Source: Terriglobia bacterium (GTDB lineage Bacteria; Acidobacteriota; Terriglobia; 20CM-2-55-15). From it: a stretch of 64,000 nt of DNA. Below, in pieces: positions 5,881 to 56,841 of this stretch. Where the stretch lies: the NCBI GenBank assembly GCA_965198225.1, contig CBDAOY010000009.1, positions 1,088,001-1,152,000 on the forward strand, written 5' to 3'. The translations under genes and the position numbers were made by a program. The notes beneath the pieces were generated by a model that was not told where the DNA came from, searched no databases, and was given only the letters and a program-made list of their open reading frames with translations. Within the stretch, counting starts at the first letter, position 1. Each line of letters opens with the position of its first letter.

Positions 5881-5994
5881 CTCGAACCTGTCGAGAGGCG
5901 ACGCTGGTCCGAACTCATGTAGCGACTGAAGAGTGTGAAATTCCAGTGCCAGTCGGAGTACAATCCGCGGATACGACAACCCCGAGGAGGGCCC

Positions 5995-6858
5995 ATGAGA
6001 AGAATGATCGCAATCGTCCTGACGGTCGCATTTGTCCTGACAGTCGCAACCCTACCCGCGGCGGCGCAGCGCGGAGCGGGAACCGAAAGGATCGACGTGA
6101 TGCAGATGCCGCGGCCAATCGAGGCGCTCGATACGGTGTGGATCGAAGAAATGACGTCGCTGGAGGTCCGGGATGCCCTCCGGGCGGGCAAGACGACGGC
6201 TCTGGTCCTGGCGGGAGGCATCGAAGAGAACGGTCCCTATCTGACGACCGGCAAGCATAATCACGTGCTGAGAGTCGTCGGAGAGGCGATCGCCCGAAAA
6301 CTCGGCAACGCCCTGATCGTTCCAATCGTAACGATCGAACCGGGCGACCCGGAGACAAGAACCACACCGGGCACGGTGATCGTCTCCAGACCGACCTACA
6401 AGGCCTGGCTCAGCGACATCGCCACGAGCCTGAGGACGCAGGGTTTCGAGAACATCGTCATGATCGCCGACAGCGGCGGCAACGTAACGCCGATGAGGGA
6501 AGTCACCGAGGCCCTCAACTCGAGTTGGAAGGGCGACAAAGCAGCCGTGCACTACATCGACGAGGCCTATAACTACGACGAGATCCTGGCGTACCAGAAC
6601 GAGGTCATGAAAGTCGAAGAGGTGCGTTATTCCGAGGGCTATCACGACAACTACTACATCACGTCGATGATCATGAACGACAACCTGGATTACGTCCGCT
6701 TGAATCAGCGGATCAAGGCGAACAAGGCGTCGATCAACGGCATCAGCCTCCTGCCGGTCGAGAAGAGCCTGGCCCACGGTCGGGCGCTGATCGAGATGAG
6801 AGCCGACGTCAGCGTCGCGGCGATCAAGAAGGCGGTGGCAGACGCCTCTTCGAATTAG
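5995..6858 (+). CDS. Exported creatininase-family protein
   Basis: GAGGAGG SD; signal peptide; WIEEMTSLEVRDAL, GGIEENGPYL and DSGGN motifs. Confidence 0.85.
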   Translation: MRRMIAIVLTVAFVLTVATLPAAAQRGAGTERIDVMQMPRPIEALDTVWIEEMTSLEVRDALRAGKTTALVLAGGIEENGPYLTTGKHNHVLRVVGEAIARKLGNALIVPIVTIEPGDPETRTTPGTVIVSRPTYKAWLSDIATSLRTQGFENIVMIADSGGNVTPMREVTEALNSSWKGDKAAVHYIDEAYNYDEILAYQNEVMKVEEVRYSEGYHDNYYITSMIMNDNLDYVRLNQRIKANKASINGISLLPVEKSLAHGRALIEMRADVSVAAIKKAVADASSN

Positions 6859-26725: not shown

Positions 26726-29095
26726 CTATTGCGAAGCCTCTTGATTCCTCGTCATCTGGAACGCGGGATTGCTCACCGTGGCCAGAATGAACGAGGAGAG
26801 ACGGTTGTCGTCGGCTGCCGCAGCCTGCTGGATCGAGCGGACCGTGGGCATATCCTTATGATCCAGGACGCGACCCAGCGCATACGCCAGCAGGTTCTCG
26901 GTGAAGCTGCCGAGGAAGGCCTCGGAACGATCCAAGACCGCCTGCCGCACGCTGACTGGCCCGTTCAGCCTGGTCCCATCGTACATCGTGCCGGACGGGT
27001 CAATGCCGGAGCCACTGTCGTTGATGCGCCATGCTCCGGTTGCATCAAAGTTCTCCAGCGCCAGCCCGATGGGGTCCATGAGCTGGTGACAGGAGGAGCA
27101 GGCGGGACTTGCGCGGTGCTGCTCCATGCGCTCGCGCACCGATAGAACCTTTTCGTTGTCGACAGCTTCGGCGAGGGGCGGCACAGATGGAAGTGGGGGC
27201 GGCGGAGGCGAGCCGATCAAGACCTCCAATACGTACTTCCCACGCGCTACTGGTGAGGTTCTATTCGCCAGCGACGTCATCGTCAGCACGCCTGCCTTTC
27301 CCAGCAAACCAAACCGGTTTGGGTCGCTCAACTCCACTCGCTGGAATCGGTTTCCCAGGACGTTCGGGATCCCGTAGTGTTTCGCCAGAACCTCATCGAC
27401 AAACGTATGGTCCGCCGTCAGCAAGTCCAGCAGGCTCCGGTCCTCGCGCATGATGCTCTCGAACAGGAGCTCGAGTTCGCGCCGCATCGATTCTGCGAGA
27501 TTCTGGGTGTAGTTGGGAAACAAGCCGGATTCGGGTAGCGCCTCGGCGATACCCCGCAAACGCAGCCACTGCCCGCCGAAGCTCGTCGCCAGCGCCTCCG
27601 AGCGAGGGTCTGCCAACATGCGCCTGGCTTGTTGTTCCAGCACCGACGGATCCCTAAGTTTTCCCTGGCTGGCCACGCTGATCAGCTCGTCGTCGGGGAT
27701 GCTGCTCCACAGGAAGTACGACAGGCGAGAAGCCAGCTCCAGGTCGCTGACGGGGAAGCTTTGACCGAGCGCAACTGGGCCCGGCACTCGCTCGAATCGG
27801 AACACGAAATCCGGCTTCGTGAGGATTGCCTGCAGGGCCGTTCGGATTCCCACCTCGAAGTCCCCATCCTCCCGGCCGACTTCGTACTGCACCATCAACC
27901 CCTCGAGATCCTCCGCGGTCACCGGTCTGCGAAAAGCCTGCCTTGCGAGCCTCGAGATGACATCCATCGCGCATGGCTCTTCCTCGGTGGCGTCCGTCGG
28001 ATAGCAGGTGAATATCCTTCGCCGGCTGGGCGTCTCCGTCACTCCCGTTGCGTCCACGGGGCCGGTAATGAAAACGCTCTGCAGGTGGGGCAGCGCCGTT
28101 ATTCCCGCGTGGTTGGCGATACTGATATCCATCAAAGTATGCTCGACGAGCCAGTACTGGTCCTCGACCACCCCGTCGAACTTCGAAACGAACGCCGCCG
28201 CAACCCTGCGTGGACCGGCTTTTATCTTGATGGGCGGTGTGAACAGGGCGCCCGAGGGTTCCTCGAGCTGTGGATCAATCTTAAATACGGCGACCCTCTC
28301 TCCGTCCACCGAAACCTCGAGTTCCTGACCCTGGAGCGAGTCGGGCAGTCTCGAGCCGATGAGCTGTCCGGTGTAGTAGAAATAGAGTTCCAGCTTGAAG
28401 GTGTAGTCGCCGTCGGCCGGGAAGTTGTGGACAACTGACATCCCGCCGCGCGTCCCGAAGGGCGTCCCCTCAACGTGACGCATCTGGTTGACGACCTTTG
28501 GCACATCGTAAGACACCATGACAGGCTGTGCCTGGGGATCGCCGACGGCGATGCGGCTGATCTTTTCGGCCGCCCGAATGTATCCCTGCATCAGCGCCGG
28601 AGTGACGGTTAGAGCGTCCGCCATATTGTCGAAACCACCGGTACTGGAGTCGCGCGGCAGAAGCGACGTCACATCCGCGTCGACACCGAGCAGATCGCGG
28701 ATCGAGTTGCGGTACTCGGTCCGGTTTATCCGATGCAGTTCCGGCGCGTTGACATGCAGCTGCAAGGCAGCGGCCTGATCGATCCGTGTTTCGAGCGCCG
28801 AGGCCAAGGCTTTCAGTGTGGCCGCATCGGGCCGGGGTTGGCCTGCCGGTGGCATCATGCCGGATCGCACTTTGCGTATCACCTTTTCGGCCTGTTCCGC
28901 GTTCTGATGAGGATCGGCGACGTCCAGAGTGGTCCACGAAAAACCGCCCGACGGTTCGAGGTCGTTGTGACAACCGACACAGTACTCTTCGACCAGCGTA
29001 CGCTGCGATTCGGCGGACGGCAAGGGGCCGCCAGTCTGTCCGAGAATGGTCACGGCCGACACTACCAGGCCACCAAGAACTAATGTGCCTTTCAT
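26726..29095 (-). CDS. DUF1592/1588/1587/1595/1585 diheme cytochrome c-like protein (copy B)
   Basis: CVGCH and CSSCH; HRINRTEYRNSIRDLL and ELASRLSYFLW. Confidence 0.9.
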   Translation of the reverse strand: MKGTLVLGGLVVSAVTILGQTGGPLPSAESQRTLVEEYCVGCHNDLEPSGGFSWTTLDVADPHQNAEQAEKVIRKVRSGMMPPAGQPRPDAATLKALASALETRIDQAAALQLHVNAPELHRINRTEYRNSIRDLLGVDADVTSLLPRDSSTGGFDNMADALTVTPALMQGYIRAAEKISRIAVGDPQAQPVMVSYDVPKVVNQMRHVEGTPFGTRGGMSVVHNFPADGDYTFKLELYFYYTGQLIGSRLPDSLQGQELEVSVDGERVAVFKIDPQLEEPSGALFTPPIKIKAGPRRVAAAFVSKFDGVVEDQYWLVEHTLMDISIANHAGITALPHLQSVFITGPVDATGVTETPSRRRIFTCYPTDATEEEPCAMDVISRLARQAFRRPVTAEDLEGLMVQYEVGREDGDFEVGIRTALQAILTKPDFVFRFERVPGPVALGQSFPVSDLELASRLSYFLWSSIPDDELISVASQGKLRDPSVLEQQARRMLADPRSEALATSFGGQWLRLRGIAEALPESGLFPNYTQNLAESMRRELELLFESIMREDRSLLDLLTADHTFVDEVLAKHYGIPNVLGNRFQRVELSDPNRFGLLGKAGVLTMTSLANRTSPVARGKYVLEVLIGSPPPPPLPSVPPLAEAVDNEKVLSVRERMEQHRASPACSSCHQLMDPIGLALENFDATGAWRINDSGSGIDPSGTMYDGTRLNGPVSVRQAVLDRSEAFLGSFTENLLAYALGRVLDHKDMPTVRSIQQAAAADDNRLSSFILATVSNPAFQMTRNQEASQ

Positions 29096-29395
29096 CAAGC
29101 CACCTCTCCCCGCTTGGCGAGTCACGGGGACACAACTCAACCTCACAAACAGGCAGCCAACTCGGTATCTTGTAGAGTTGTCTGCGCAACCGGTCCTGCA
29201 CACTCCATGCGCGCCTGACCGGGATGCCAGCGACCACAAGGTGCTTTGGTGCAACTGCTTGTTGAAATAACTACTTGTCGCAATATAGGTGGACCGGAAC
29301 CAGACGTCAACTTTTTAAAGGGTGCCCTGAGTTGACACTACCCCTGCAGTCTGCGATAAGCTGCCCATATCTTCAGCCTGAATAAGGAGGCCACA

Positions 29396-30577
29396 GTGGC
29401 TGTCACCTCCGAGACCCGCATCGGCTCGCGACCCGACGTAATCGAAACTTCCAAACCGGCCAGACACGGCGTTCAACACCACATTCCCGTGATCGGGGAT
29501 ATCCACGACAAGAGCCCCCTGGCGTATCGCACGACCCGTGGGGCCGTCCACGTGACGAATCTGGTCCAAATGGCTTTTGCGGAAGCCTACGTCCATGGAC
29601 TGGAGCTTCCCGACCCCGTGATGCGAGGAATTTTCAAGACGGTCATGCCGATCATCTTTAAACATTTCCCCGCACTCCTGACCCCCTACGAATGGGTATT
29701 AGGAGAAACGCCACACATGGCTGAAGGCTCTAGGGATTTGATGAAGACCCAGTACGACCTGCCACAGGGCATGTTGAATCGGATGCTGGGCGACTGGAAA
29801 CTGATCTACCCTAAATACAGCATGGGATTGTGGGAGCGGGGAGCTGCCGATCTCGAGCAATCCCAGATGCACATGATCGACGACATAATTGAAAAGCTCG
29901 GGATCGAGGATGGCGACAATATCCTGGATTTTGGCTGTGGCTGGGGTTGTGTGCCGAACTACATTCTGTCCAAGTTTCCCAATTGCAGGTTTACCGGACT
30001 GAACCTGAGCCATGAGCAATGCGAGTATATGCGCCGGCAGATGCAGAATCCGGAAAGCTATCTCAGCTCGGGTCGGTTTACTCTTGTGGAACAGGATCTC
30101 AACGAGGCGCAGTTCGAAAAAAAGTTCGACAAGATCCTATCGGTAGGTGTTTTTTGCCATGTGGGGAACCTCACCAGGTCTTTCGCAAAACTTGCTTCTA
30201 TCCTGAAACCAGGCGGAAAGTTTTTCCTCCACATCATCACCGTTCGCACTCCCAACAACATCTCCAGCGTTTACACCCACAAATACATTTTCCCGCACGG
30301 CCGTTTCTGGCGCTTCGATTCGATTCAGACCTACAACAAGGATCTCAGGCCAGTGGAACGATGGTACATGAACGGCATGAACTATCACAAAACGATGACA
30401 CGCTGGCTGGAAAACTTTGACGATAGCTATCCCGATGTCAAAGATCTCGATTACGGCATTGAGTTCGCCAAATTCCGCCGCATCTGGCGGTTTTACCTGA
30501 TCTGGTTGGCGACCAACTTTGCAAGCTGTGATGGAGAGATAAACGGCAACGGGCAGTGGCTGATGGTTCACTCTTGA
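29396..30577 (+). CDS. Class I SAM methyltransferase, cyclopropane fatty-acyl synthase / coclaurine N-methyltransferase-like
   Basis: AAGGAGG SD; KYSMGLW, ILDFGCGWG, KYIFPHG and RIWRFYL. Confidence 0.88.
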   Translation: MAVTSETRIGSRPDVIETSKPARHGVQHHIPVIGDIHDKSPLAYRTTRGAVHVTNLVQMAFAEAYVHGLELPDPVMRGIFKTVMPIIFKHFPALLTPYEWVLGETPHMAEGSRDLMKTQYDLPQGMLNRMLGDWKLIYPKYSMGLWERGAADLEQSQMHMIDDIIEKLGIEDGDNILDFGCGWGCVPNYILSKFPNCRFTGLNLSHEQCEYMRRQMQNPESYLSSGRFTLVEQDLNEAQFEKKFDKILSVGVFCHVGNLTRSFAKLASILKPGGKFFLHIITVRTPNNISSVYTHKYIFPHGRFWRFDSIQTYNKDLRPVERWYMNGMNYHKTMTRWLENFDDSYPDVKDLDYGIEFAKFRRIWRFYLIWLATNFASCDGEINGNGQWLMVHS

Positions 30578-30614
30578 TCGCGCGCGGCTAAGCCGTTTCC
30601 AGTCGGGCCTTTGT

Positions 30615-31466
30615 ATGACTCCAGTTGGGCGATTTAATTTCCGGACAATTGTTGCCTTCGCGCCGCTGCATGCCGGCTGCCTGCTCTTGTTGTGGACGCC
30701 GTTCCAGTGGTCATACCTGGGCTGGCTCGTCGTCACCTACTACATTCGAATGTTCGGGGTCACGGCCGGCTATCATCGTTACTTCAGCCACCGTTCCTTC
30801 AAGCTCGATCGCTTTTCACAGTTTCTTCTGGCCTTTCTCGCCCAGACCAGCGCGCAAATGGGCGTGTTGTGGTGGTCGGCACATCATCGAACGCACCATC
30901 GCTACTCCGAGACCGACAAAGATCCTCATTCACCGGTACAGAAGAGCCTTTGGTGGTCGCACATGGGCTGGCTTCTGGACGGTGGGTCCCGTGAATGTGA
31001 CAGCCGCCTCATGCAGGACTTTGAAAAGTTCCCTGAACTCCGGCTACTGGAGAAATATCATAGGGTTCCAGCTATTCTGTTTGGTGCTGCGGTGTATGCG
31101 GTGGGAGGCTTTCCCGCTTTCGTCTGGGGATTCGTCGTGTCGACTGTGGTGCTCTGGCACGGGACGTTTACAATCAACTCCCTCGCGCATGTCTGGGGAT
31201 CCCGGCCCTTCGAGACGGACGACCAGAGTCGGAACAATTTCCTGCTCGCCCTGATCACACTCGGAGAAGGCTGGCACAACAACCACCACCAGTTCATGTA
31301 TAGCGTCCGGCAGGGTTTGCGATGGTGGGAGATTGACATCTCGTACTACGTCCTGAGGATCCTGAGCCTGATCGGGATTGTTCGGGAATTGCGCACGCCA
31401 AATCCTTCCGAAGTCTTCAAGTTCCGGACGTCAGGGTTGGATCCCGAGACTCGAACGGCTCTGTAG
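30615..31466 (+). CDS. Delta-9-type acyl-CoA/acyl-lipid desaturase
   Basis: His boxes HRYFSH, HRTHH and GEGWHNNHH. Confidence 0.93.
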   Translation: MTPVGRFNFRTIVAFAPLHAGCLLLLWTPFQWSYLGWLVVTYYIRMFGVTAGYHRYFSHRSFKLDRFSQFLLAFLAQTSAQMGVLWWSAHHRTHHRYSETDKDPHSPVQKSLWWSHMGWLLDGGSRECDSRLMQDFEKFPELRLLEKYHRVPAILFGAAVYAVGGFPAFVWGFVVSTVVLWHGTFTINSLAHVWGSRPFETDDQSRNNFLLALITLGEGWHNNHHQFMYSVRQGLRWWEIDISYYVLRILSLIGIVRELRTPNPSEVFKFRTSGLDPETRTAL

Positions 31467-45224: not shown

Positions 45225-47515
45225 TCAGGGGTTGGGAACGGCGATTAGTTTTTGAGTATTGGAGCCGCCGGCCGGGAACTTCATGCCGTCGATGTGAATG
45301 AGCTTCTGCGGCGTGCTGTTGAAGTCGCCCCATACCCAGAGCGTGCCGTCCTTGTCGGCCGCCATCCGCCCGTACGCGCCGGATCCGATCGAGACTATCG
45401 GCGGCAGACCGTTCACCCGGACCGGGACGCTGCTGTCGAGGCAGTTGACAAAGACCTGGCAGCCATCGCCGAGTTGACCGTAGCCGTTGTAGCCCCACGC
45501 CCACACCGTGCCATCCGACGTGAGCGCCATGCTGCCCGTTGCTGCGGCAGCCACCTCGACGACGTCGATTAGCCCCAGCACCGGGGCGGGTTCGAAAGCG
45601 CTCGGACAGTTGGCGCTGAGATCGCAGCCATCCCCCAGCTGGCCGTTGCTGTTGTAGCCCCACGCCCAGACGGTTCCGTCATCCTTGACCGCGAGGACGT
45701 GGGCGTCGCCGCCGGCAAAATTGATGACCTCCTTCATGTTTGTCTGTTGCGGGGTCTTGTAAAGAGCGGGTGGGCTGCCGTTACCGAGCTGACCGGAGTA
45801 GTTGCTGCCCCACCCCCAAAGGGTGCCGTCGCTGGTCTGGGCCAGGCTGTACTCGGAGCCGGCGCCGAGCGCGACAACATCGCTGATCTCGACCAGGATT
45901 GGCAGATTCCTGTCGATGGTGGTGTTGTCACCGAGCTGACCGTAAAAGTTCTCGCCCCAGGCGTAGACGAGCCTCTGAGTCCCCTGGGTCGTCAGGGCCA
46001 GACTGTGAAACGGCCCTGCAGCAACCGCCAGGGCATTGCCTAGGAAGCCCTTACCGAGGCGTACCTGGACCGGAAACGGACTGGCGGGGTTCTGGTCGAA
46101 GGTGCTCCCGCCGTCGCCCAGCTGGCCCTTGGTATTGAATCCCCATGCCCAGACCCGCCCGGTTGGCGCAACCGCCAGGTTGAACTGGTTGCCGGCCGCC
46201 ATGCTCACGATCCAGGTGGGACCGTCCACCGGCCCCGGCGTGTCCCGACCGTGGAATGTTCCGTCGCCGATCCCGCCCGGTCCCCACGTCCACATCGTCC
46301 ACGGTACTTTCGAAAAGAGGCTGTACCCAGCCCCGGCGGCAACTGTTGTCACTCCCTCCAGGCCCTGAACCTCAAGGGGTTCGCGGTGAATCCACGGAAA
46401 CAGCGTCGGCATGCCGAACTGCCCCTGGGCGTTGCTGCCCCACGCCCAGATCGTGCCTTCGGTCTGAGTCGCCAGGCTGTGGTTGGCGCCCGCGCTGATC
46501 CTGGCGACGTCGGTGAGGGGGACCTGGCCGGGGTTCGGCTCGTTGTTGGGGGCGGTCGTCCGTCCGAGCTGGCCCTGGACATTGCGGCCCCATGACCATG
46601 CCGTACCATCCGACTTGAGTGCCTGCTGTGGTCCCGTCCCGCCGCGAGGCTGACGACCTTCTGAGGTAGCGGCCCCAGAGAGACTGGCACCGGGGTGTTC
46701 TTGTCGCCGAAGCTCCCATTGCCGAGTTGTCCACGCTTGTTGCGGCCCCAGGCAAAGACGTTGCCATCCGCATCGCGCGCCAGGCTGTGCCAGCCCCCGG
46801 CAGCGATTCCCGTTATCGCGCTCACGCCTTGCACCAGGAAGGGCACGGATTTCTGGATCCAGGTGCCGTCTCCGAGCTGGCCGAACTTGTTGTTTCCCCA
46901 GGCGAAGAGGGCGCCGCTCGCGTGGGCGGCCAGGCTGTGGCTGCCGCCGGCCGCGATTGCCCGGACTCCCTGGAGAAGGGTCCAGAAGTACTTGACGTAC
47001 TGCGGTCGGCTCCGGGACGTTATCGTGAAGTCTCCGAGCTGACCGGACGAGTTGTCCCCCCACGCCAGGACGTAGCCCGTGGATGTCAGGGCCATGCTGT
47101 GTTTGTCACCGGCCGCGACAGCGATCACATCGCTCAAAGGCTGGCCGTATCGGGTCACCGGCGCGGGAACGTAGCCGTTGTAACAATAAGAGTTCTGCTC
47201 CAGGCACTCGTCGCCGAGCTGGCCCTTGTCGTTCCTACCCCATGCGTAGACGGTTCCGTTCTTCATCAAGGCCAGGCTGTGACCGCCACCGGTCGTGATG
47301 GCCGCAACCTCGGTCAGATTGAGCACCTGCACCGGCACGGTGCTGTCCTGGTTGGACCCGTTGCCGAGCTGGCCCGAACCGTTTTCTCCGGAAGCCACGA
47401 CCGTACCGGGCACCTGGGCGATCCCCGGCCCGGCGGCGAACATAACCAGCAACGAGCATCCGATCAGGCAGCGGGCCTCAAATACCGTTGAAACTCTTTT
47501 CCACATCTTTGTCAT
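45225..47515 (-). pseudogene. Exported RCC1/BLIP-II repeat protein with a 1-bp frameshift near 46624
   Basis: AAGGAGG SD; signal peptide; many AAGxxHSLAL..GxVWAWGxNxxGQLG repeats; the frame switches at AAGRDHS/ALKSDG. Confidence 0.85.
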
Positions 47516-47618
47516 CCTTCCTCCTTGATCTGTCACCATCCTAGGAAGGGGTCGCGAGGGCGAACATCGCATGTTCATGCGGTTTTTTCGACTCCGGCCC
47601 GAATTTTTCGGGACAAAT

Positions 47619-48271: not shown

Positions 48272-49309
48272 CTATCTACCCCTCGGCTCTTCATCCGGCA
48301 ACGTACCGGTCGGATCTTCCAAATGGAGCCGGCTCAAGACGGCTTTCTGGACGTGGAGGCGGTTTTCTGCGTTCTCGAGGACGGCTGAGCGGGGACCGTC
48401 GAGGACGGCGTCGGTCACGACGAGGTTGCGGCGCACCGGAAGGCAATGCATGAAGTGGGCGTTCGCGGTTTGGTTCATAAGGGCCTCGTCGACGATCCAA
48501 TCCGAATGCCGCCCGCGCAGGTTCCGTTCTTCTTCCGGGGCGTCGTATCGGGACAGTGCCCCCCAGGACTTGGCGTACACGATGGCGGCACCTCGCGCGG
48601 CACTCTCCTGGTCGTTCGAGATTCGAACGGTCCCGTTCGCCCGGCGGGCGAGCTCCTGTGCCCGGTCGATCACCATGTCGGTCAGCTCGAAACCGCGTGG
48701 GTGTGCCAGCGTCACCTCCATCCCCATGCTTGCGGTGGCCAGCAGCAACGAGTTGGTCACGGCCATCGGCAGCGGCCTTGGGTGTGGGGCCCACGTGATC
48801 GTGATCCGTCGTCCGGCGTGCCCACCCAGTAGCTCCTGGATCGTCAGCAGATCGGCCAGCGCCTGGCATGGGTGGTACATGGCGGATTCCATGTTGAACA
48901 CCGGCACGCGGGCGTGTCTCATGAAAGCAGTGAAGAGAGTGTCGCCGATGTCATCGTCGAAAGAGGCCCCGCGCGCCAGCGTACGTAGACCGATGCCACT
49001 GTAGAACCGAGACAGGACACCGACGGCTTCTTTGACGTGTTCGGCTTCGTCCCCGTCCATTCGCGTCCCGTCGCGGGTCTCCAGGCCGTAGATCATCCCC
49101 GGCTCCAGCGTTGTCACACCGGCCCCCATCTGGCGCAAGGCCACCTCGAAGGAGCAGCGGGTCCGCAGGGACGGGTTCTGGAACCACAGGACGAACTGCC
49201 GGCCCTCAAGTTCGTCGGACACGGGTTGGCGTTTGTACCGCGCCGCAGCGGCGAGAAGCTCGCGAGTTTCTTCGATCCCGATGTCGGCCAGGTTGTAGAA
49301 ATGCCGCAT
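48272..49309 (-). CDS. argF': N-acyl-ornithine carbamoyltransferase (ArgF', AOTCase/SOTCase family)
   Basis: NPSLRTRCSF, MDGDEAEH, HPCQALAD, TWAPHPRPLP and HCLPVRRN. Confidence 0.92.
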   Translation of the reverse strand: MRHFYNLADIGIEETRELLAAAARYKRQPVSDELEGRQFVLWFQNPSLRTRCSFEVALRQMGAGVTTLEPGMIYGLETRDGTRMDGDEAEHVKEAVGVLSRFYSGIGLRTLARGASFDDDIGDTLFTAFMRHARVPVFNMESAMYHPCQALADLLTIQELLGGHAGRRITITWAPHPRPLPMAVTNSLLLATASMGMEVTLAHPRGFELTDMVIDRAQELARRANGTVRISNDQESAARGAAIVYAKSWGALSRYDAPEEERNLRGRHSDWIVDEALMNQTANAHFMHCLPVRRNLVVTDAVLDGPRSAVLENAENRLHVQKAVLSRLHLEDPTGTLPDEEPRGR

Positions 49310-49344
49310 CGTCGATTCGTGGGCCCTGTTGCGTGCGATGGCCT

Positions 49345-50541
49345 TCATCTCAGAACACGCCGGAAGGTTTCGAGAAAAGCGTCCCATTCATCCGCCCCAA
49401 GGGTCAGCGGCGGCAACAGCCGGATGGTATTGGGCTCGGCGCAGGTGCCGACCAGCACCCCTTCCTGGAGCAAACGAGCCTGCAGCTCTTTGGCGTCCGT
49501 TCGGCACTCGACGCCGAGCAGGTAACCCAGACCGCGCACCTCCGAGACTCCGCCGACCAGGCTTTCCAGGACAGACCGCGCCTGGGCTGAGCACCTCACG
49601 ACCTGATCGATGAGGCCTTCTTCTTCGATGATGCGGTAAGTTGCGCGTATCGCCGCGGCGGCCAGTGGATTGCCCCCGAACGTCGTTGCGTGATCCCCGG
49701 GTTCGACCGTTGCCGCGAATGCCTCGTTGACGATCACGGCTCCCGCGGGAAAGCCGCCGGCCACTCCCTTCGCGGTCGTCACGATGTCGGGCTCGACCCC
49801 CCAGTGCGAGCCGGCGAACCACTTTCCGGTCCGTCCGTTGCCCGTCTGGACTTCGTCGAAGATCAGGCAGATGCCCTGGCGGGTGCAATAGTCCCGCAGA
49901 CCGCGGTAGTAGTTCGCATCGGCTGCGTAGACGCCGGCGACGCTCTGGATGGGTTCGACGATCACCGCCGCGACGCGCTCGGGATCCGGCAATTCGAACA
50001 CCGCGGGGTCGCCCATCTTGAAAAAGCGCGTCCAACCGTCCAGATTCTGTGGGAACTTATCCCGCAGCACCGGGAACCCGGAGACGCTCAGGGTGCCGAT
50101 CGTCCGACCGTGGAAGCCGCCGGACATGGAGACCACATCGCTCCTGCCGGTCGCCTTTCGAGCGATCTTTAACGCCGTTTCGCCGGCCTCGGATCCGGAG
50201 CCGCAGAAGAAGGCCGCTCGCATGCCCGGGTAGCTGTTCTCGACCAGCAGCGCGGCGGCCTCGCCGCGGACCGACGAGTAGACGGCGTTCGAGTAGAAGA
50301 CCAGTTCCCCGATCTGCTGCCGCATCTCTTCCACCCAGCGTGGATGACAGTGGCCGATCGAGCACACGGCGTGTCCCGCATAGAGGTCCAGGTACGCGTT
50401 ACCCTCGTCGTCGTAGACATAGCTGCCCTTACCACGGACGATCGACAGGGGTAGACGTATGTTCCGGTAGGTCGGCAGCGTGTAAGTGTCTTCGACCTCG
50501 CGTGACGTCCGACCTTCGATGTTGGAAGCGGATCCTGTCAT
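49345..50541 (-). CDS. argD: Acetyl/succinyl-ornithine aminotransferase
   Basis: SGSEAGETALK, FHGRT, FDEVQTG.GRTG and TTAKG. Confidence 0.92.
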   Translation of the reverse strand: MTGSASNIEGRTSREVEDTYTLPTYRNIRLPLSIVRGKGSYVYDDEGNAYLDLYAGHAVCSIGHCHPRWVEEMRQQIGELVFYSNAVYSSVRGEAAALLVENSYPGMRAAFFCGSGSEAGETALKIARKATGRSDVVSMSGGFHGRTIGTLSVSGFPVLRDKFPQNLDGWTRFFKMGDPAVFELPDPERVAAVIVEPIQSVAGVYAADANYYRGLRDYCTRQGICLIFDEVQTGNGRTGKWFAGSHWGVEPDIVTTAKGVAGGFPAGAVIVNEAFAATVEPGDHATTFGGNPLAAAAIRATYRIIEEEGLIDQVVRCSAQARSVLESLVGGVSEVRGLGYLLGVECRTDAKELQARLLQEGVLVGTCAEPNTIRLLPPLTLGADEWDAFLETFRRVLR

Positions 50542-50572
50542 AGGCTTCAGCGTGCTCGGTCCGTGGCCTGGT

Positions 50573-51646
50573 CTATACGAAGACACCCGGATACCGGAGC
50601 CCGGCGGTTTCATCCCATCCGAGGGCACAGTTGAGGTTCTGAATCGCCTGACCCGCAGCGCCTTTCCCTAGGTTGTCGATCGCGACGAAGGCGACGGCGC
50701 CACGTCCTGATGCGCCGTCGACGCCGACCACGGCCCGCGGCGTGCCCAGCACCCACCTCAGCTCCGGGGAACCGTCGACGACATCGACGAGTACTTCGTC
50801 GCCGTAGGTCCGGTCGTACAGCTGCCGAATCACCGATTCGTCCATGCCCGGAAGAAAGACCGTCACGAGAATACCCCGCGGAAGGGGAGCCGACTGCGGT
50901 ACGAACTGAAGCTGGAAGTCGTTATCCGTCTGGGTGTTCAGGAACCACTCCACCTCGAGCAGATGCTGGTGTGTGAGCGGCTTGTAGGCGCGCAGGTTGT
51001 TGACCCTTTCGGGATGATGGGTGGTGGGCACGGGCTGCCGGCCCGACCCCGACGAACCCGTGATACCGGTCAGGCACACCGGACCCGACAGCCAGCCTTC
51101 CCGCGCCAGCGGAGTGAGTGCCAGCAGGATGCCGGTCGCAAAACATCCCGGATTGGCGATGAGCCGGGCTTTCCGCAACCGCTCCCGTTCGAACTCGGTC
51201 AGCCCGTACACGAAACTCTCGAGAAGGTCCGCTGCGGCATGGGCCCGCCCGTAGTAGCTTTCGTAACCCCGGGCGTCGGGCGTGCGGAAATCGCCGGCCA
51301 GGTCCACCCATATCGTGTCGGGATAGGCGTCGACGAGCCCCGGCAGGACCTCCTGAGATTCATGATGCGGAAGGCTCAGGAAGACGATGCCGACCTCATC
51401 GAGCCGCTCGGCAGCCTCTTTCGATGTGATGAACGTCTGGTCGACGAACCCCCGCAAGTTGGGGAAGACCTCGGCGACTGGTTTGCCGGCGTCGCGGTTT
51501 GCGGTCGCCCAGCCGAGGACAAGCCCGGGGTGGACGGACAAGTAACGCATGAGCTCACCGCCGCCGTACCCGGAGGCGCCCAGGATCCCCACAGCACGTC
51601 TATGTGCGATCGGATCCGGCACACCGGTCGGGTTGCGATCGGCCAC
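50573..51646 (-). CDS. argC: N-acyl-gamma-glutamyl-phosphate reductase
   Basis: GASGYGGGEL, IANPGCF and IDNLGKGAAGQA; start approximate. Confidence 0.93.
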   Translation of the reverse strand: MADRNPTGVPDPIAHRRAVGILGASGYGGGELMRYLSVHPGLVLGWATANRDAGKPVAEVFPNLRGFVDQTFITSKEAAERLDEVGIVFLSLPHHESQEVLPGLVDAYPDTIWVDLAGDFRTPDARGYESYYGRAHAAADLLESFVYGLTEFERERLRKARLIANPGCFATGILLALTPLAREGWLSGPVCLTGITGSSGSGRQPVPTTHHPERVNNLRAYKPLTHQHLLEVEWFLNTQTDNDFQLQFVPQSAPLPRGILVTVFLPGMDESVIRQLYDRTYGDEVLVDVVDGSPELRWVLGTPRAVVGVDGASGRGAVAFVAIDNLGKGAAGQAIQNLNCALGWDETAGLRYPGVFV

Positions 51647-51674
51647 GGGGGATCCTGCTTCCGGGCCGGGATGG

Positions 51675-52730
51675 CTATGAAACCCGGCGCGCATTGGTGT
51701 TGAGGAGGCTGCGGACCACTTCCCCAAGGCGGGCCGGATAGCGACACGCGTTGACGGCGGGCCGGTTGAACTGCGCTTCCAGGTACTCTACGCCGACCAG
51801 GCTGTCGGTCACCGGGCCGGAGAACAGGTCGATGTGGATGCCGTGGTCCGAGAGATACCGATGGCCGCCCCATGCACCGGCCAGGTCGCTGGCGCAGAAC
51901 AGGTGCAGGCGCATCGCCCGGCGAATCACGGGGTCCTTCAGCAGATCCAGAACGCCGTAGTCACCGATCACTCCGTCCCCCAGCTCCACAACGATCAGGT
52001 CCGGGGAGTATGAGGCAAGATGGGTAACGAGGGTTCCGGCGATGTCGGCGCGAGCGGCCTGATCAAGCCCGGCCGTCGACGGGTACCCGGCATCCAGGAA
52101 CGATGCCGTTCCGATGGCTCCGTGGCCTTTCATGGCGATCAGGTCTCTCAAACAAGCGACCCCGGTCAGTTTCGCGGCCGCCACGCGGAAGCCCGCTCCC
52201 GACAACTCGCGAACCAACTCCGTAACCAGCCGTGTCTTTCCACTCTCCATGGACGTGCCGGACACGACAACCAGGGGCGGCATCCGGAGACCATCGCTGT
52301 CGAGGGCTGGCCCGACCCGGGCGTCCTGAAGATTAGGGATCCTGGCGTGAATGAATGGCATGCCGATCACTTCACAGGCGAGGGGGGAGCCCAGTTGCTG
52401 GTGCTCCCTCGCCCGGGCGCCGACGACGCCACCCCGGTTCAGAATCGCCAGGACGTCGCCGACGCTGACTCTCTGGGGTACTTCGCCGTCGAAGCCCCTC
52501 AGCGCCCGCCGGCAGCCGAGTGCGCCGACGACGACGTCGCCCTCCAGGATGCGCACCAGGTTTCCGTTCGAAAGCTCCAGCTCCTCCGACCTCGAACGCT
52601 GTCCGAGTACCCGGACCACGATGGGGTTGCCCGTCCGGGCTTCGAGGTGAGTCGTGATCGGGAGCTCGGATCCCAGGTTCAGGCGATGAACCACCGAGGC
52701 GATCTTGTCAACCTGCACGGTTTGCAGCAT
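51675..52730 (-). CDS. DUF1611/DgcN-like P-loop-fold protein embedded in the arg operon
   Basis: GTSMESGKT, AKLTGVAC.RD, FLDAGYPST and VVELGDG; start overlaps the 3' end of argG. Confidence 0.7.
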   Translation of the reverse strand: MLQTVQVDKIASVVHRLNLGSELPITTHLEARTGNPIVVRVLGQRSRSEELELSNGNLVRILEGDVVVGALGCRRALRGFDGEVPQRVSVGDVLAILNRGGVVGARAREHQQLGSPLACEVIGMPFIHARIPNLQDARVGPALDSDGLRMPPLVVVSGTSMESGKTRLVTELVRELSGAGFRVAAAKLTGVACLRDLIAMKGHGAIGTASFLDAGYPSTAGLDQAARADIAGTLVTHLASYSPDLIVVELGDGVIGDYGVLDLLKDPVIRRAMRLHLFCASDLAGAWGGHRYLSDHGIHIDLFSGPVTDSLVGVEYLEAQFNRPAVNACRYPARLGEVVRSLLNTNARRVS

Positions 52731-53946
52731 TTAGGCCTTGCTCCTTGAGATCGCGATCCTCGACGCCGCGGTGAAGCCGTGACGGCACCGCGGCAATGGT
52801 GCTGTACCCTCTCGCGTCTTGCCCGCTCCAGAGGGTCGGCATCTCACCGTAGATACCGCTCTCGGCTCCGACCAGGGTATTGGGGCTGCGGACTCCCGTG
52901 ATCCCAAAGTGTCTGTGGGTCATCGACACGCGGGCCTCACCCGAAACCCGTTCCTGCGACCGGTCGATCAGGGCTTCGATGTCGCCCAGGGCGGGCTCGA
53001 ACGCGAGGCCCTCGTGGAGCATCTTTCCGTAGAACTCCCCGAGGTGATCCTTCCAGAACCGCTGCCACGATGTCGTTGTGATTTTCTCCAGCTCCCGGTG
53101 GGCATGGATGAGCACGAGTGCGGCCCCCGCTTCGAAGGCGATACGTCCCTTGATGCCCAGGACGGTGTCTCCGATGTGAATGCCCAGGCCGACCCGGTGC
53201 CGGCGGCAGAGGGTTCCCAGGGTCGTGATCAGTTCAGGGCCGTTGTATTCGGTGCCGTCGAGCGTCACCGGAACCCCGTGATCGAACCCGATCACGGTCT
53301 CTTCGCCGTCGACGCTTCCACCGTTTCCGGCGGCGTGCTCATAGACGTGATCGGGAATGGCCTCCCAGGGATCGTGGGTTTCGCCGCCGCCGATCGTGCT
53401 GCCCCAGAGGCCGGCGTTGATCGAATAGCGCCGCGATGAGGCCTGGATTTCGACGCCGTGATCCCGGAGATAGGCATACTCCTCATCCCGGCTCAGTTTC
53501 TGATCGCGCACGGGCGTGATGATTTCCAGTTGCGGGCACAGCACGTGGAAAGCGACGTCGAAACGTACCTGGTCGTTGCCTGCGCCAGTCGAGCCGTGGG
53601 CCACCGCGTCAGCCCGCGCCTCGAGGGCATGTTCGGCGACGACTCGGGCCTGCACGACGCGTTCGGCGGCGACCGCCAGGGGATACACCTGGCCGCGCAG
53701 GATGTTGCCTTTGATCAGGTAGCTGATATAGCGGTCGAAGACCTCCTGCCGCGCGTCCACGGTATGGTGGGACGCCACCCCGAGCGCCATCGATCGTTCC
53801 TCCAGCCCGAGGAGCTCTTCTTTCTCGAAGCCACCCGTATCGACCGTGACCGTCACAACGTCGAAACCACGTTCGATGAGGTTCAGGATGCAGTAGGAGG
53901 TGTCGAGCCCTCCCGAATACGCGAGAACGACCTTCTTGCTGGACAT
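52708..53946 (-). CDS. argG: Argininosuccinate synthase
   Basis: KVVLAYSGGLDTS; HGSTGAGNDQVRF. Confidence 0.96.
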   Translation of the reverse strand: MSSKKVVLAYSGGLDTSYCILNLIERGFDVVTVTVDTGGFEKEELLGLEERSMALGVASHHTVDARQEVFDRYISYLIKGNILRGQVYPLAVAAERVVQARVVAEHALEARADAVAHGSTGAGNDQVRFDVAFHVLCPQLEIITPVRDQKLSRDEEYAYLRDHGVEIQASSRRYSINAGLWGSTIGGGETHDPWEAIPDHVYEHAAGNGGSVDGEETVIGFDHGVPVTLDGTEYNGPELITTLGTLCRRHRVGLGIHIGDTVLGIKGRIAFEAGAALVLIHAHRELEKITTTSWQRFWKDHLGEFYGKMLHEGLAFEPALGDIEALIDRSQERVSGEARVSMTHRHFGITGVRSPNTLVGAESGIYGEMPTLWSGQDARGYSTIAAVPSRLHRGVEDRDLKEQGLNAANRAG

Positions 53947-53957
53947 GGGTACCTCTC

Positions 53958-55382
53958 TTACCCTTCGGAAGTGGTCGCGGGCACCGCGGCCGATAGCATC
54001 TTTTCCTCGCGCAGCCGCTTTGTGATGTCGCGAAGACGCACGATCTCGGCCCGGACGCGGCGCGGCGCGGTACCTCCCACGACGTCTTTGTTCTCCAGGG
54101 CCGCGGTGACAGACAGCGCATCAAATAGATCGACGTCGAATGCTCGATGGATCGCCCGATACTCCTCGATGGACAGGCTCGCTAGAGATGTTCCCCGGCT
54201 CTGGGCCGTCCGGACCGCCTCGGCGCTCCGCTCATGTGCCTGGCGAAACGGCACTCCCTTGCGGGTCAAGTAGTCGGCCACGCTGATCGCGTCGATGTGC
54301 CCACCTTCCAGTGCCGCGGTTGCGCTCCGGCGGTTCACGACAAGAGTCCCGACGATAGTATCGAACACCGGTATGATCAGGTTCACGGTATCGGCCGCGT
54401 CGAAGGTCCCTTCCTTGTCTTCCTGAAGATCCTTGTTGTAAGAGAGCGGCAAGCCTTTCAGCGTGGTCACGAGCGCGACCAGGTGCCCGAGCGTGCGTCC
54501 GCACTTGGCACGCCCCAGCTCGCAGGCGTCGGGGTTCTTCTTCTGCGGCAGCATGGAACTGCCCGAGGCCACAGATTCGTCCAGCTCGACGAATCCGAAC
54601 TCGCTCGAAGACCACAGGATGAGATCCTCGCCCAGGCGCGACACGTGGACCAGAAACAGGACGCAGGCATGCAGGAAGTCGCACGCAAAGTCTCTGTCAC
54701 TGACCGCATCCAGCGAATTGTGAGTCATCCGCGCGAAACCGAGACGCCGCTGGAGATCGTCCCGGTCGATGCCAAACTGATTGCCGGCGCACGCCCCCGA
54801 TCCCAGTGGGCACGAGTCCGCTTGATCGGCCGCCCAGGTGAATCGTCCGTGGTCGCGCAGAAACATCTCCGCGTAGGCGAGCAGGTGATGGGCAAACAGG
54901 ACCGGCTGTCCGCGCTGGAGGTGTGTGTAGGCCGGAATCACGACGTCGAAGTTGAGTTCGGCTTGATCGACGAGGGCGTCGATCAGCGACAGGAGGTCGC
55001 GCGCGATTCCCTCCGACTGGTCCCGCAGGTGGAGGCGCAGGTCCGTCGCGACCTGGTCATTGCGGCTGCGGCCGGTGTGGAGCCTCGCCGCAGGTTCACC
55101 CACCAGCTCCGTCAGACGGCCTTCGATGTTCATGTGGATGTCTTCCAGTTCTTCGGAAAACACGAACTGCCCGGACTCTATCTCCAGTTGGACCTGTTCG
55201 AGGCCCTCGCCGATCCTCCGGCTGTCCTCGTCGGAGATGAGGCCGCTCCGGCACAGTGCGTCGTTCCAGGCGCGACTGGATTCGATGTCCTCCTGGAAGA
55301 GCCGTCGGTCAAAACCGATGCTCGCGTTCAGGCTCCGAAACGAGGCGTCCATGGGTTTGGAGAAACGCGCGCTTCGCTTCAC
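53958..55382 (-). CDS. argH: Argininosuccinate lyase
   Basis: HTGRSRNDQVATD; SGSSMLPQKKNPD; YNKDLQEDK. Confidence 0.97.
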   Translation of the reverse strand: MKRSARFSKPMDASFRSLNASIGFDRRLFQEDIESSRAWNDALCRSGLISDEDSRRIGEGLEQVQLEIESGQFVFSEELEDIHMNIEGRLTELVGEPAARLHTGRSRNDQVATDLRLHLRDQSEGIARDLLSLIDALVDQAELNFDVVIPAYTHLQRGQPVLFAHHLLAYAEMFLRDHGRFTWAADQADSCPLGSGACAGNQFGIDRDDLQRRLGFARMTHNSLDAVSDRDFACDFLHACVLFLVHVSRLGEDLILWSSSEFGFVELDESVASGSSMLPQKKNPDACELGRAKCGRTLGHLVALVTTLKGLPLSYNKDLQEDKEGTFDAADTVNLIIPVFDTIVGTLVVNRRSATAALEGGHIDAISVADYLTRKGVPFRQAHERSAEAVRTAQSRGTSLASLSIEEYRAIHRAFDVDLFDALSVTAALENKDVVGGTAPRRVRAEIVRLRDITKRLREEKMLSAAVPATTSEG

Positions 55383-56290
55383 AGCGACCCCTCGAGGACG
55401 GAGACGGGCCTGCCCGACACGGGCAGAACGAGCGTGCCCTGGCTGCCCGGTTCACACGCTTCCCGCAGCAGGGCGTGTGGCGACTGGCCGTCGATGAGGT
55501 GAGCACTCCGGGTTCCACCCTCCAGGGCCCGGACCATGGTAGTCAACTTGGGGATCATGCCGCCGCGCACGACTCCCGCTTCGATCAGCGCCTGGATGGC
55601 ATCGAGCGTGACTTCCGCGATCCGGCTGTTGCGGTCCTCGCGATCACGGAGGATTCCCGGGACGTCGGAGAGGACCAGCAGTTTGTCGGCCCTCAGGCTG
55701 ATGGCGATCTCCGACGCGACCGTATCGGCGTTGATGTTGAAGACGTTTCCATCGAGATCCGCACCAAGCGGGGAAATCACCGGAACGAATTGACGATCCA
55801 AGAGGTGTCCGAGTAGCTCCCGGTCCACCCTGCGAACGTCGCCGACGTTCTGGAAGTCGACCAGTTCGCGTTCGCCGCTCTCTCGATCGATCATCCAGCG
55901 AGGCGGACGGCGCGTCGCGTCGATCAGGTTTCCGTCCACGCCCGACAGGCCTACGCCGGGCACACCCTGTCGACGGAGCGCAGCGACGAGGTCAGTGGAA
56001 ATTCGGCCGGCGAACACCATCTTTGCGAGCTCCAGCGTCTCGGTGTCGGTGACCCTCCGGCCGTTCACTGTTGTGCTTCCGATGCCCAGGCGATCCGCCC
56101 ACCCCTCCAACTGCGGTCCTCCGCCGTGGACGATGACAAGGCTGATGCCTGCGTCACGAAGCAGGGAGATGTCCGAAGCGAACCCCTCGATGACCGGCGC
56201 ATCCTTGAGCAGTTCGCCACCGATCTTGACCACAAACTGGCTGTCTCTGTAGATGCGCAGATCCTCGAATGACAGAACGCCCGCGTTCAT
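55379..56290 (-). CDS. argB: N-acylglutamate kinase
   Basis: VVKIGG, VHGGGPQ, NINADTVA and GGMIPK; GAGG SD. Confidence 0.94.
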   Translation of the reverse strand: MNAGVLSFEDLRIYRDSQFVVKIGGELLKDAPVIEGFASDISLLRDAGISLVIVHGGGPQLEGWADRLGIGSTTVNGRRVTDTETLELAKMVFAGRISTDLVAALRRQGVPGVGLSGVDGNLIDATRRPPRWMIDRESGERELVDFQNVGDVRRVDRELLGHLLDRQFVPVISPLGADLDGNVFNINADTVASEIAISLRADKLLVLSDVPGILRDREDRNSRIAEVTLDAIQALIEAGVVRGGMIPKLTTMVRALEGGTRSAHLIDGQSPHALLREACEPGSQGTLVLPVSGRPVSVLEGSL

Positions 56291-56308
56291 GGACGGCCCT
56301 CGGTTATA

Positions 56309-56346
56309 TGTGAATATATATGCATATAGAAGCATAAGTATGCATT
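56309..56346. promoter_or_regulatory. Tandem ARG boxes (ArgR operators)
   Basis: tgTGAATatatATGCAta and gaAGCATaagtATGCAtt, 2 bp apart, between divergent argB and argR. Confidence 0.85.
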
Positions 56347-56394
56347 CATTTGGGGTCTCGCGTCAACCCTCCTTGTTATAATTCCAGCGACACG

Positions 56395-56841
56395 ATGAGC
56401 ATCAAGAGACTGCGCCACAACGCGATTGTCGAGCTGGTCAAGGCCGGGAGTGTGGAGAGTCAGGAAGGACTCGCACGTGAGCTGCGCCGAATGGGCATGA
56501 ACGTGTCGCAGTCGACCCTTTCGCGGGACATCCGCGAGCTGGGCCTCGCGAAATCCGGTCGCGTCTACACGGTGACTCCGACGAACACCCGGGGCGGATC
56601 CAACCCCACGCTGCGGAGGATCCTCGATGAGTTTCTCCTTCAGGTGGACTCGGTGCAGCAAACACTCGTCCTGAAGACCCGGCCAGGCAATGCGGCAACC
56701 GTGGCTCAGGCAATCGACGACGCCGAGTGGCCCGAAATCGCCGGTACAATAGCCGGAGAAGACACCATCTTCGCGTTATGCCGTTCGAAGGGTGACGTCG
56801 GGCGCCTGCAGGAGAGGATCAGGAAGCTTCTGACCCAATAG
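56395..56841 (+). CDS. argR: Arginine repressor
   Basis: SQSTLSRDIREL; GTIAGEDTI. Confidence 0.95.
   Translation: MSIKRLRHNAIVELVKAGSVESQEGLARELRRMGMNVSQSTLSRDIRELGLAKSGRVYTVTPTNTRGGSNPTLRRILDEFLLQVDSVQQTLVLKTRPGNAATVAQAIDDAEWPEIAGTIAGEDTIFALCRSKGDVGRLQERIRKLLTQ

Follow-up and report, generated by a model that had tools for sequence, protein, structure and literature searches.

How is arginine biosynthesis started in a bacterium whose arginine operon lacks a recognizable gene for the first step? This question is raised by a stretch of 64,000 nucleotides from a Terriglobia bacterium (contig CBDAOY010000009.1, positions 1,088,001 to 1,152,000; hereafter the window), in which a gene of unassigned function, here called X, lies within an arginine operon. 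X (51675..52730, minus strand) is an open reading frame (ORF) with an ATG start encoding a 351-residue two-domain protein, for which homologues, an AlphaFold2 model and synteny are available. Gene order, conservation, phyletic exclusion and fold class, each observed directly, support the proposal made in a preliminary description of this DNA that X is a non-GNAT N-acyl-glutamate synthase; its substrate, product and acyl donor are deduced. As judged from the sequence data, X probably makes N-acyl-L-glutamate, most plausibly N-succinyl-L-glutamate, and thereby replaces ArgA and ArgJ, a reading to which we assign a probability of about 0.75 to 0.8.

Pfam and NCBIfam searches of the window ORFs place the genes on the minus strand in the order argB-argH-argG-X-argC-argD-argF', and no GNAT, ArgA or ArgJ gene was found in the operon. 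The individual genes are argB (55379..56335 as longest ORF; TIGR00761, 230 bits), argH (53958..55382; TIGR00838, 542 bits), whose product of 474 residues is devoid of a fused GNAT domain, argG (52708..53946), argC (50573..51727 as longest ORF; TIGR01850, 329 bits), argD (49345..50628) and argF' (48272..49387), the latter coding for an N-acylornithine carbamoyltransferase (NF003384, N-acetylornithine carbamoyltransferase; 399 bits, cut-off 288). For argB, the ATG at 56291 is the likelier start, since the longest ORF begins inside the AT-rich operator, and the true start of argC probably lies later as well, because the family match begins only at residue 46. The TGA stop codon of argG (52710-52708) and the ATG of X (52730-52728) give rise to an overlap of 23 nucleotides. 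Gene order, the missing argA and argJ, this overlap and three motifs in X had all been given in the preliminary description and were recovered here. The operon had also been called ArgR-controlled, an assignment supported by a divergently oriented argR (56350..56841, plus strand; both the N- and the C-terminal Pfam domain) and by an ARG-box-like palindrome, TGTGAATATATATGCATA, at 56309..56326 in the spacer between argR and argB. This palindrome is the sole match to the ARG-box consensus within the 64 kb and deviates at one position on both strands; shuffled sequence is expected to yield 0.71 matches at up to three mismatches. The divergent spacer is very short, and a second copy of TATGCAT is situated about 20 bp beyond the palindrome (56339-56345).

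The gap is not confined to the operon. Across the whole genome of the organism (6.4 Mb in nine contigs, 97% complete) no match to ArgJ was obtained, and the ArgA model matched nothing but the kinase domain of argB, so that neither a canonical argA nor an argJ was found. ArgE is likewise not represented above the cut-off; 13 matches of the M20 type fall below it, the best scoring 175 bits against 297.7.

X belongs to a large family. Among 8000 candidates scored, 533 homologues were detected at E≤0.001, of which the 120 best, as listed, reach E≤1.3e-83. In a representative library at 50% identity, X matches 1229 clusters at E≤0.001. These numbers establish X as a real gene. Every named homologue listed is a 'hypothetical protein', and none carries a precomputed Pfam domain; among the matches listed, named homologues come from Planctomycetes and Blastocatellia only, and from Planctomycetes only if a distant member is used as query. 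Look-alike clusters in the Atlas are commonest in Pseudomonadota, an observation that serves as a lead only.

The genomic context of these relatives is strikingly uniform. When each species was represented by a single genome, 580 relatives were confirmed, and in 80 out of 80 inspected loci, the best of the 580, X is adjoined by arg genes. The neighbours comprise argG in 75 loci, argC in 71, argD in 65, argF' in 60, argB in 57 and argH in 47, with contig ends cutting several of the loci. The core order argG-X-argC is conserved, whereas the positions of argB and argH vary. The loci originate from Acidobacteriota (among them the cultured strain Pyrinomonas methylaliphatogenes K22), from Planctomycetota and from one metagenome-assembled genome of Wallbacteria. 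A phylum search centred on Pyrinomonas gave genomes and coordinates identical to those obtained with the genome of the window, which identifies its organism as an acidobacterium. A predicted complex of ArgB and X scored 0.00, a result that is uninformative on binding in either direction. Parts of X, argC, argG, argH and argB are covered by metatranscriptome contigs of 100% identity, gaps elsewhere in the operon being without significance, and single metatranscriptome records span the argG/X and the X/argC junction, respectively, carry-over of DNA being possible. For positions 51000-53500 of the window, four sponge metatranscriptome runs from one study contain 26-34% of the sequence words, and several entries contain the stretch in full; the organism is apparently a member of sponge microbiomes.

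If X supplies N-acyl-glutamate, it should have no need of ArgJ or ArgA beside it, and a phylogenetic profile against these two enzymes is in agreement with this expectation. The profile covered genomes of at least 90% completeness. Among 201 Acidobacteriota genomes, 52 harbor a strong X (E≤5.5e-87), eight a weak match only and 51 ArgJ, while 98 contain neither a strong X nor ArgJ; a strong X together with ArgJ occurs in none. The corresponding numbers for 151 Planctomycetota genomes are 51 (E≤1.5e-79), four, 64, 36 and, again, zero. The only two Acidobacteriota genomes in which an X-like gene co-occurs with ArgJ each contain a weak match, and ArgJ is present in three of the four weak-only Planctomycetota genomes. 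Fisher's test gives p-values of 1.8e-8 and 6e-17 for the two phyla, although related genomes are non-independent samples. ArgJ is also absent from eight more X-bearing genomes reached via the loci, and ArgA exceeds its cut-off in a single Acidobacteriota genome (G058), which is devoid of X. Three genomes are flagged as unpublished (G023 and G048 with a strong X, G145 with a weak X-like match and ArgJ); their omission reduces the counts from 52 to 50 and from 51 to 50 and leaves the conclusions unchanged.

A second mutual exclusion concerns a short GNAT. Five of the 98 Acidobacteriota genomes lacking both a strong X and ArgJ were sampled. One of them (G169), from the same class as the organism of the window, contains the gene order argR-argC-argB-argF-argG-argH followed by a 209-residue GNAT. 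No homologue of this protein was found in the genome of the window (best tblastn E 0.33) or in the 83 X-bearing loci. Its type occurs in 34 of the 201 genomes, 30 of which also encode ArgJ, in 21 cases within about 350 bp of the short GNAT gene, and none of the 34 coincides with the 52 strong-X genomes. The short arg-linked GNAT and X thus replace each other, as expected if both produce N-acyl-glutamate. With about 150-210 residues (L125:5230-5856 in G169), the short GNAT looks like the N-acetylglutamate synthase of Acidobacteriota. Among the other sampled genomes, G012 yielded a weak kinase match only, no ArgB was detected at E≤1e-25 in G017 and G021, and G004 harbors a cluster of the LysX/LysZ/LysY type. 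In this last cluster (L126, G004:C1:346800-366700), the order LysX (a RimK-like ATP-grasp protein)-LysY-LysZ-LysJ adjoins genes for homoaconitase and homoisocitrate dehydrogenase; some members of the phylum therefore rely on the LysW carrier protein and not on N-acyl intermediates.

The AlphaFold2 model of X (mean predicted local confidence, pLDDT, 90.9; predicted TM-score, pTM, 0.89) displays two domains. Residues 1-145 (52296..52730, minus strand) form a β-rich N-terminal domain with the invariant residues S12, G34, E52, G69, L71, G72, R74, A76, G79, P85, G100, G101, G104 and G123. No solved fold matched this domain, and an Atlas search with it alone returned one hit at 0.85, without a family. 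Residues 147-351 (51678..52292) constitute a P-loop domain of the BioD/CTP-synthase/DUF1611 type. It adopts the SIMIBI P-loop fold (residues 147-350, approximately), for which Foldseek ranks HypB, SRP GTPases and BioD on top. The three motifs of the preliminary description are located in this domain: the Walker-A-like loop GTSMESGKT (residues 158-166, 52233..52259) with G164, K165 and T166 invariant, KLTG (residues 187-190, 52161..52172), whose lysine aligns with that of the BioD 'KP' motif, and ELGDG (residues 249-253, 51972..51986), whose glutamate aligns with that of EGAGG in BioD and EGQG in DUF1611. In a family alignment of 75 sequences with identities down to 26%, invariance is limited to G164, K165, K187 and E249. 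The 81 arg-linked orthologues share 45 invariant positions, including R74, K165, T166, K187, D196, E249, D252, C279, D282, D309 and N327; this count is based on 80 of the 83 locus sequences, three partial ones having been dropped.

X had been described as carrying motifs typical of DUF1611-like proteins, and its C-terminal domain is indeed homologous to this family. A match to the DUF1611 Pfam model is missing, though: searches of X with Pfam and NCBIfam gave only sub-threshold P-loop hits (MobB/CbiA), without DUF1611 even at E≤10 and without any GNAT or ArgJ domain, and the genome of the organism contains no match to PF07755. The homology becomes apparent in profile comparisons. With DUF1611 proteins from genomes of the phylum, hhalign aligns 180 columns of the C-terminal domain at 90.3% (E 1.5e-6), and with BioD 169 columns at 94.6% (E 6.4e-8), placing K187 on the BioD 'KP' lysine and E249 on the EGAGG glutamate, the BioD alignment comprising five sequences. 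For the N-terminal domain of CTP synthase, the P-loop alone was aligned (3%). A shallower alignment of 28 sequences recovered nothing beyond the P-loop against DUF1611 (4%), so that the broader alignment of 75 was needed, and querying the Protein Data Bank (PDB) with the family profile yielded nothing but chance rows of response regulators (E 0.87-1.6). Structural comparison of the C-terminal domain results in scores of 16.9 for CTP synthase, 16.1-16.5 for the DUF1611 protein 2G0T, 16.2 each for BioD and ApbC, 15.7 for the DUF1611 protein 2OBN and 14.9 for DgcN (7XRJ), which are tied within a spread of about one to two units. The suggested likeness to DgcN is therefore real in that DgcN ranks among the tied best matches; it is no closer than the likeness to BioD.

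The differences between these relatives are informative. X shares the homologous C-terminal P-loop domain with DgcN and DUF1611 (PF07755; PDB-IDs 7XRJ, 2G0T and 2OBN), and only the C-terminal domains align. X has GKT in place of the GKRTT loop of DUF1611 proteins and KLTG in place of their TGQT after strand 2, and K187 falls into a gap without a DUF1611 counterpart. Moreover, DgcN functions in D-glutamate catabolism, whereas X is found in the context of L-arginine biosynthesis. With BioD, X has in common the GTxxxxGKT loop, the lysine after strand 2 and the glutamate at the end of strand 3; in contrast to X, BioD lacks the extra N-terminal domain, and substrate and reaction differ. GNAT synthases (ArgA, ArgA2 and the short arg-linked GNAT) share with X the proposed reaction and the place in arg operons. 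Their fold, however, is unrelated, X contains no GNAT domain, and the distributions are exclusive. According to Ashniev et al. 2022 (PMC9026213), the N-succinylglutamate synthase of Bacteroidetes is the GNAT ArgA2/BT3761, an assignment with genetic support.

Which acyl group is transferred? Among solved structures, the ArgF' of the window is closest to the N-acetylornithine carbamoyltransferase of X. campestris, with a variant carrying Ala at Glu92 as top-scoring entry. The corresponding residue of the window's ArgF' is Ala115 (49043-49045, minus strand). As cited in bioRxiv 10.1101/2024.10.14.618325, Shi et al. 2007 found that the exchanges E92A, E92P, E92S and E92V switch the specificity to N-succinylornithine. 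In the 60 ArgF' sequences encoded beside X, this position is occupied by Thr in 48, Ala in seven, Ser in four and Val in one, and never by Glu. Because the Glu of acetyl-specific enzymes is replaced by Ala in the ArgF' of the window, the acyl group, provided that X makes N-acyl-glutamate, is rather likely to be succinyl and not acetyl. The occurrence of X is not tied to ArgF', however. Among Acidobacteriota, ArgF' exceeds the cut-off in 45 of the 201 genomes and is accompanied by a strong X in 41; conversely, 11 genomes encode a strong X without ArgF'. The three of these that were inspected contain X-argC-argD-argB operons, and all five that were tested encode a canonical ornithine carbamoyltransferase (OTCase; 328-407 bits). 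Therefore, X tracks the three enzymes that act on N-acyl-glutamate derivatives and not ArgF' as such.

The proposed function is not without precedent. The same bioRxiv preprint (GapMind) predicts the Steroidobacter protein ACG33_RS14135 (UniProt A0A127FCT3) as an alternative ArgA on the grounds of arg-operon context, lack of co-occurrence with ArgA, Foldseek likeness to 7XRJ and ArgF' residue 92, and contains no experiment on the protein; no other paper naming it was found in a literature search. As judged from context and not from an alignment, X and ACG33_RS14135 look like members of the same family. Both are hypothetical proteins within arg operons that contain argF' (for X, 80 out of 80 loci are arg operons, joined by the three X-argC-argD-argB operons), both never occur alongside an ArgA-type synthase (for X, in the 201 Acidobacteriota genomes and that of the window), both neighbour an ArgF' devoid of Glu at position 92 (Ala, Pro, Ser or Val, or Thr or Ile, in the preprint), and both remotely resemble DgcN. 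The preprint makes no mention of operons with an ordinary OTCase, of the BioD-type lysine and GKT, of the unmatched N-terminal domain or of paralogues outside arg operons. While the prediction itself is thus already known, the second phylum, the exclusion of the short GNAT, the operons with an ordinary OTCase, the catalytic set resembling that of BioD and the N-terminal domain lacking a structural match are new here.

In the proposed mechanism, X would N-acylate L-glutamate, and the N-acyl-glutamate formed would pass to ArgB, ArgC and ArgD. Catalysis would take place in the BioD/DUF1611-type P-loop domain around the invariant core of K165, K187 and E249, and binding of the dicarboxylate substrates probably falls to the new-looking β-domain, in which R74 is invariant. 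As to the donor, succinyl-CoA is narrowly favoured because DgcN, the only characterised relative, N-acetylates D-glutamate. Provided that X is the synthase, we consider the chances of an acyl-CoA donor to be even and those of ATP together with a free acid to be smaller, albeit appreciable.

The latter possibility, in which X would be an ATP-dependent succinate (or acetate):L-glutamate ligase of the BioD/CobQ/CTP-synthase kind, arises because X retains GKT, K187 and E249 and matches BioD equally well or better than DUF1611. ATP would phosphorylate the free acid, the α-amine of glutamate would then attack the resulting acyl phosphate, and no CoA thioester would be involved. Retention of the canonical GKT and of the BioD-type second lysine, which DUF1611 lacks, speaks for such a reaction. 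On the other hand, the only characterised glutamate acylator of the group, DgcN, is named an N-acetyltransferase in PDB entry 7XRJ. DgcN is reportedly dependent on acetyl-CoA. Furthermore, the differences in structural Z-scores and in the hhalign results are within noise, and only five sequences make up the BioD alignment. We therefore regard a ligase as unlikely, though worth keeping in mind. If it were real, X would be the founding member of a class of ATP-dependent N-acyl ligases for amino acids in which succinyl phosphate is generated by the P-loop domain and L-glutamate is presented by the β-domain, a prospect that is equally doubtful.

A role at another step of the pathway is improbable. 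X could recycle the acyl group in an ArgJ-like manner from N-acyl-ornithine or N-acyl-citrulline to glutamate, or could act as a deacylase of N-acylcitrulline or N-acylornithine. Such a role would fit the perfect exclusion between X and ArgJ and the lack of ArgE above the cut-off, a lack shared, according to the preprint, by Steroidobacter, and C279, invariant in the arg-linked orthologues, could carry an acyl group. Yet the P-loop fold is without precedent as an amide hydrolase, the 13 sub-cut-off M20-type proteins could supply a deacylase, and a recycling enzyme would still require a priming synthase, and there is no sign of one. The short GNAT that accompanies ArgJ is likewise excluded by X, as expected if X takes the place of the synthase. 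Slightly less probable still is that X serves as a nucleotide-binding regulator, chaperone or scaffold while an unlinked, unrecognised acyltransferase makes N-acyl-glutamate: GTxxxxGKT, the second lysine and the glutamate fit the catalytic set of BioD and not the signatures of G3E or MinD, the extra domain is highly conserved with 17 invariant residues, the exclusion with ArgJ and the arg-linked GNAT is strictly one-for-one, and no known arg enzyme needs a helper of this type.

Several observations weigh against X being the synthase. X falls short of the DUF1611 Pfam model, and BioD is as close to it as DgcN. The synthase function of the family is a prediction, and a literature search found no biochemical or genetic test of it. 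Generic GNATs could still exist elsewhere in the window's genome, and the exclusion of ArgJ could partly reflect the type of pathway and not its first step. The 98 Acidobacteriota genomes with neither a strong X nor ArgJ demonstrate that other solutions exist. Most of the ArgF' proteins (48 of 60) carry Thr, which is absent from the exchanges reported to change the specificity. In addition, four genomes (G052, G174, G104 and G171) encode ArgF' without a strong X. In G052 (L122, G052:C29, about 5946-6176), a remnant covering residues 2-78 of X is left between argG and argC while the rest of argG-argC-argF'-argB is intact, and neither ArgJ nor a short GNAT gave a match. The contig of G174 has a length of 4.3 kb and begins inside argC. 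In G171, genes for an Mla transporter lie upstream of argC, and in G104 an ORF of 155 residues without a family match and an M20 peptidase gene are situated between argG and argB; a GNAT replacing X in place was not seen in either of the two. Finally, only one fusion was seen, a representative of 626 residues (P0182) in which an X-like domain is joined to an ArgB-like kinase domain (127 bits); this protein is truncated at its N terminus, and a search for longer fused relatives of X found none, which is weak evidence.

Outside of the orthologous group, weaker X-like proteins with about 30% identity to X are encoded in other surroundings. None of the seven inspected has an arg gene within 6 kb; their neighbours are genes for M20 peptidase and FMN reductase, flavin reductase, ABC exporters or peptidases, and ATP-grasp proteins. 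Two X-like paralogues barely surpass the DUF1611_C cut-off (26.2 and 31.5 bits). These weak paralogues bridge X and DUF1611 and show that the arg role is confined to one orthologous group. Two paralogues with about 30% identity (L097:5995-7260 and L100:5950-7071) are flanked by genes for an NADPH-dependent FMN reductase and an M20 peptidase and could be part of another N-acyl-amino-acid system.

Elsewhere in the window, two RCC1-repeat ORFs of 612 and 409 residues (45225-47578, minus strand) overlap by about 700 nucleotides in different frames and may represent one frameshifted gene or two adjacent β-propeller genes. The lowest GC content (0.54 compared to about 0.62) is found at 29396-31466, where a cyclopropane-fatty-acid-synthase-like methyltransferase and a fatty acid desaturase are encoded. 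An 842-residue protein (26726-29254, minus strand) combines the DUF1585/1587/1588/1592/1595 set with a cytochrome c motif, an architecture best known from Planctomycetes. Rfam and tRNA scans of the window gave no matches.

X without ArgJ is found in about a quarter of the Acidobacteriota (52/201) and a third of the Planctomycetota (51/151) sampled, and in the genomes of many abundant bacteria of soil, water and sponges no gene is assigned to the step that opens arginine synthesis. If X is the synthase, a recurrent gap in metabolic reconstruction and in the prediction of auxotrophy would be closed by a non-GNAT solution to a textbook reaction, which, depending on the donor, would represent an extension of the DgcN-type acyltransferases or an ATP-dependent route. 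Should the ATP-dependent route apply, arginine synthesis in much of the Acidobacteriota and Planctomycetota would dispense with acyl-CoA at its start, and the succinate set free in the last part of the pathway could go straight back into the first step.
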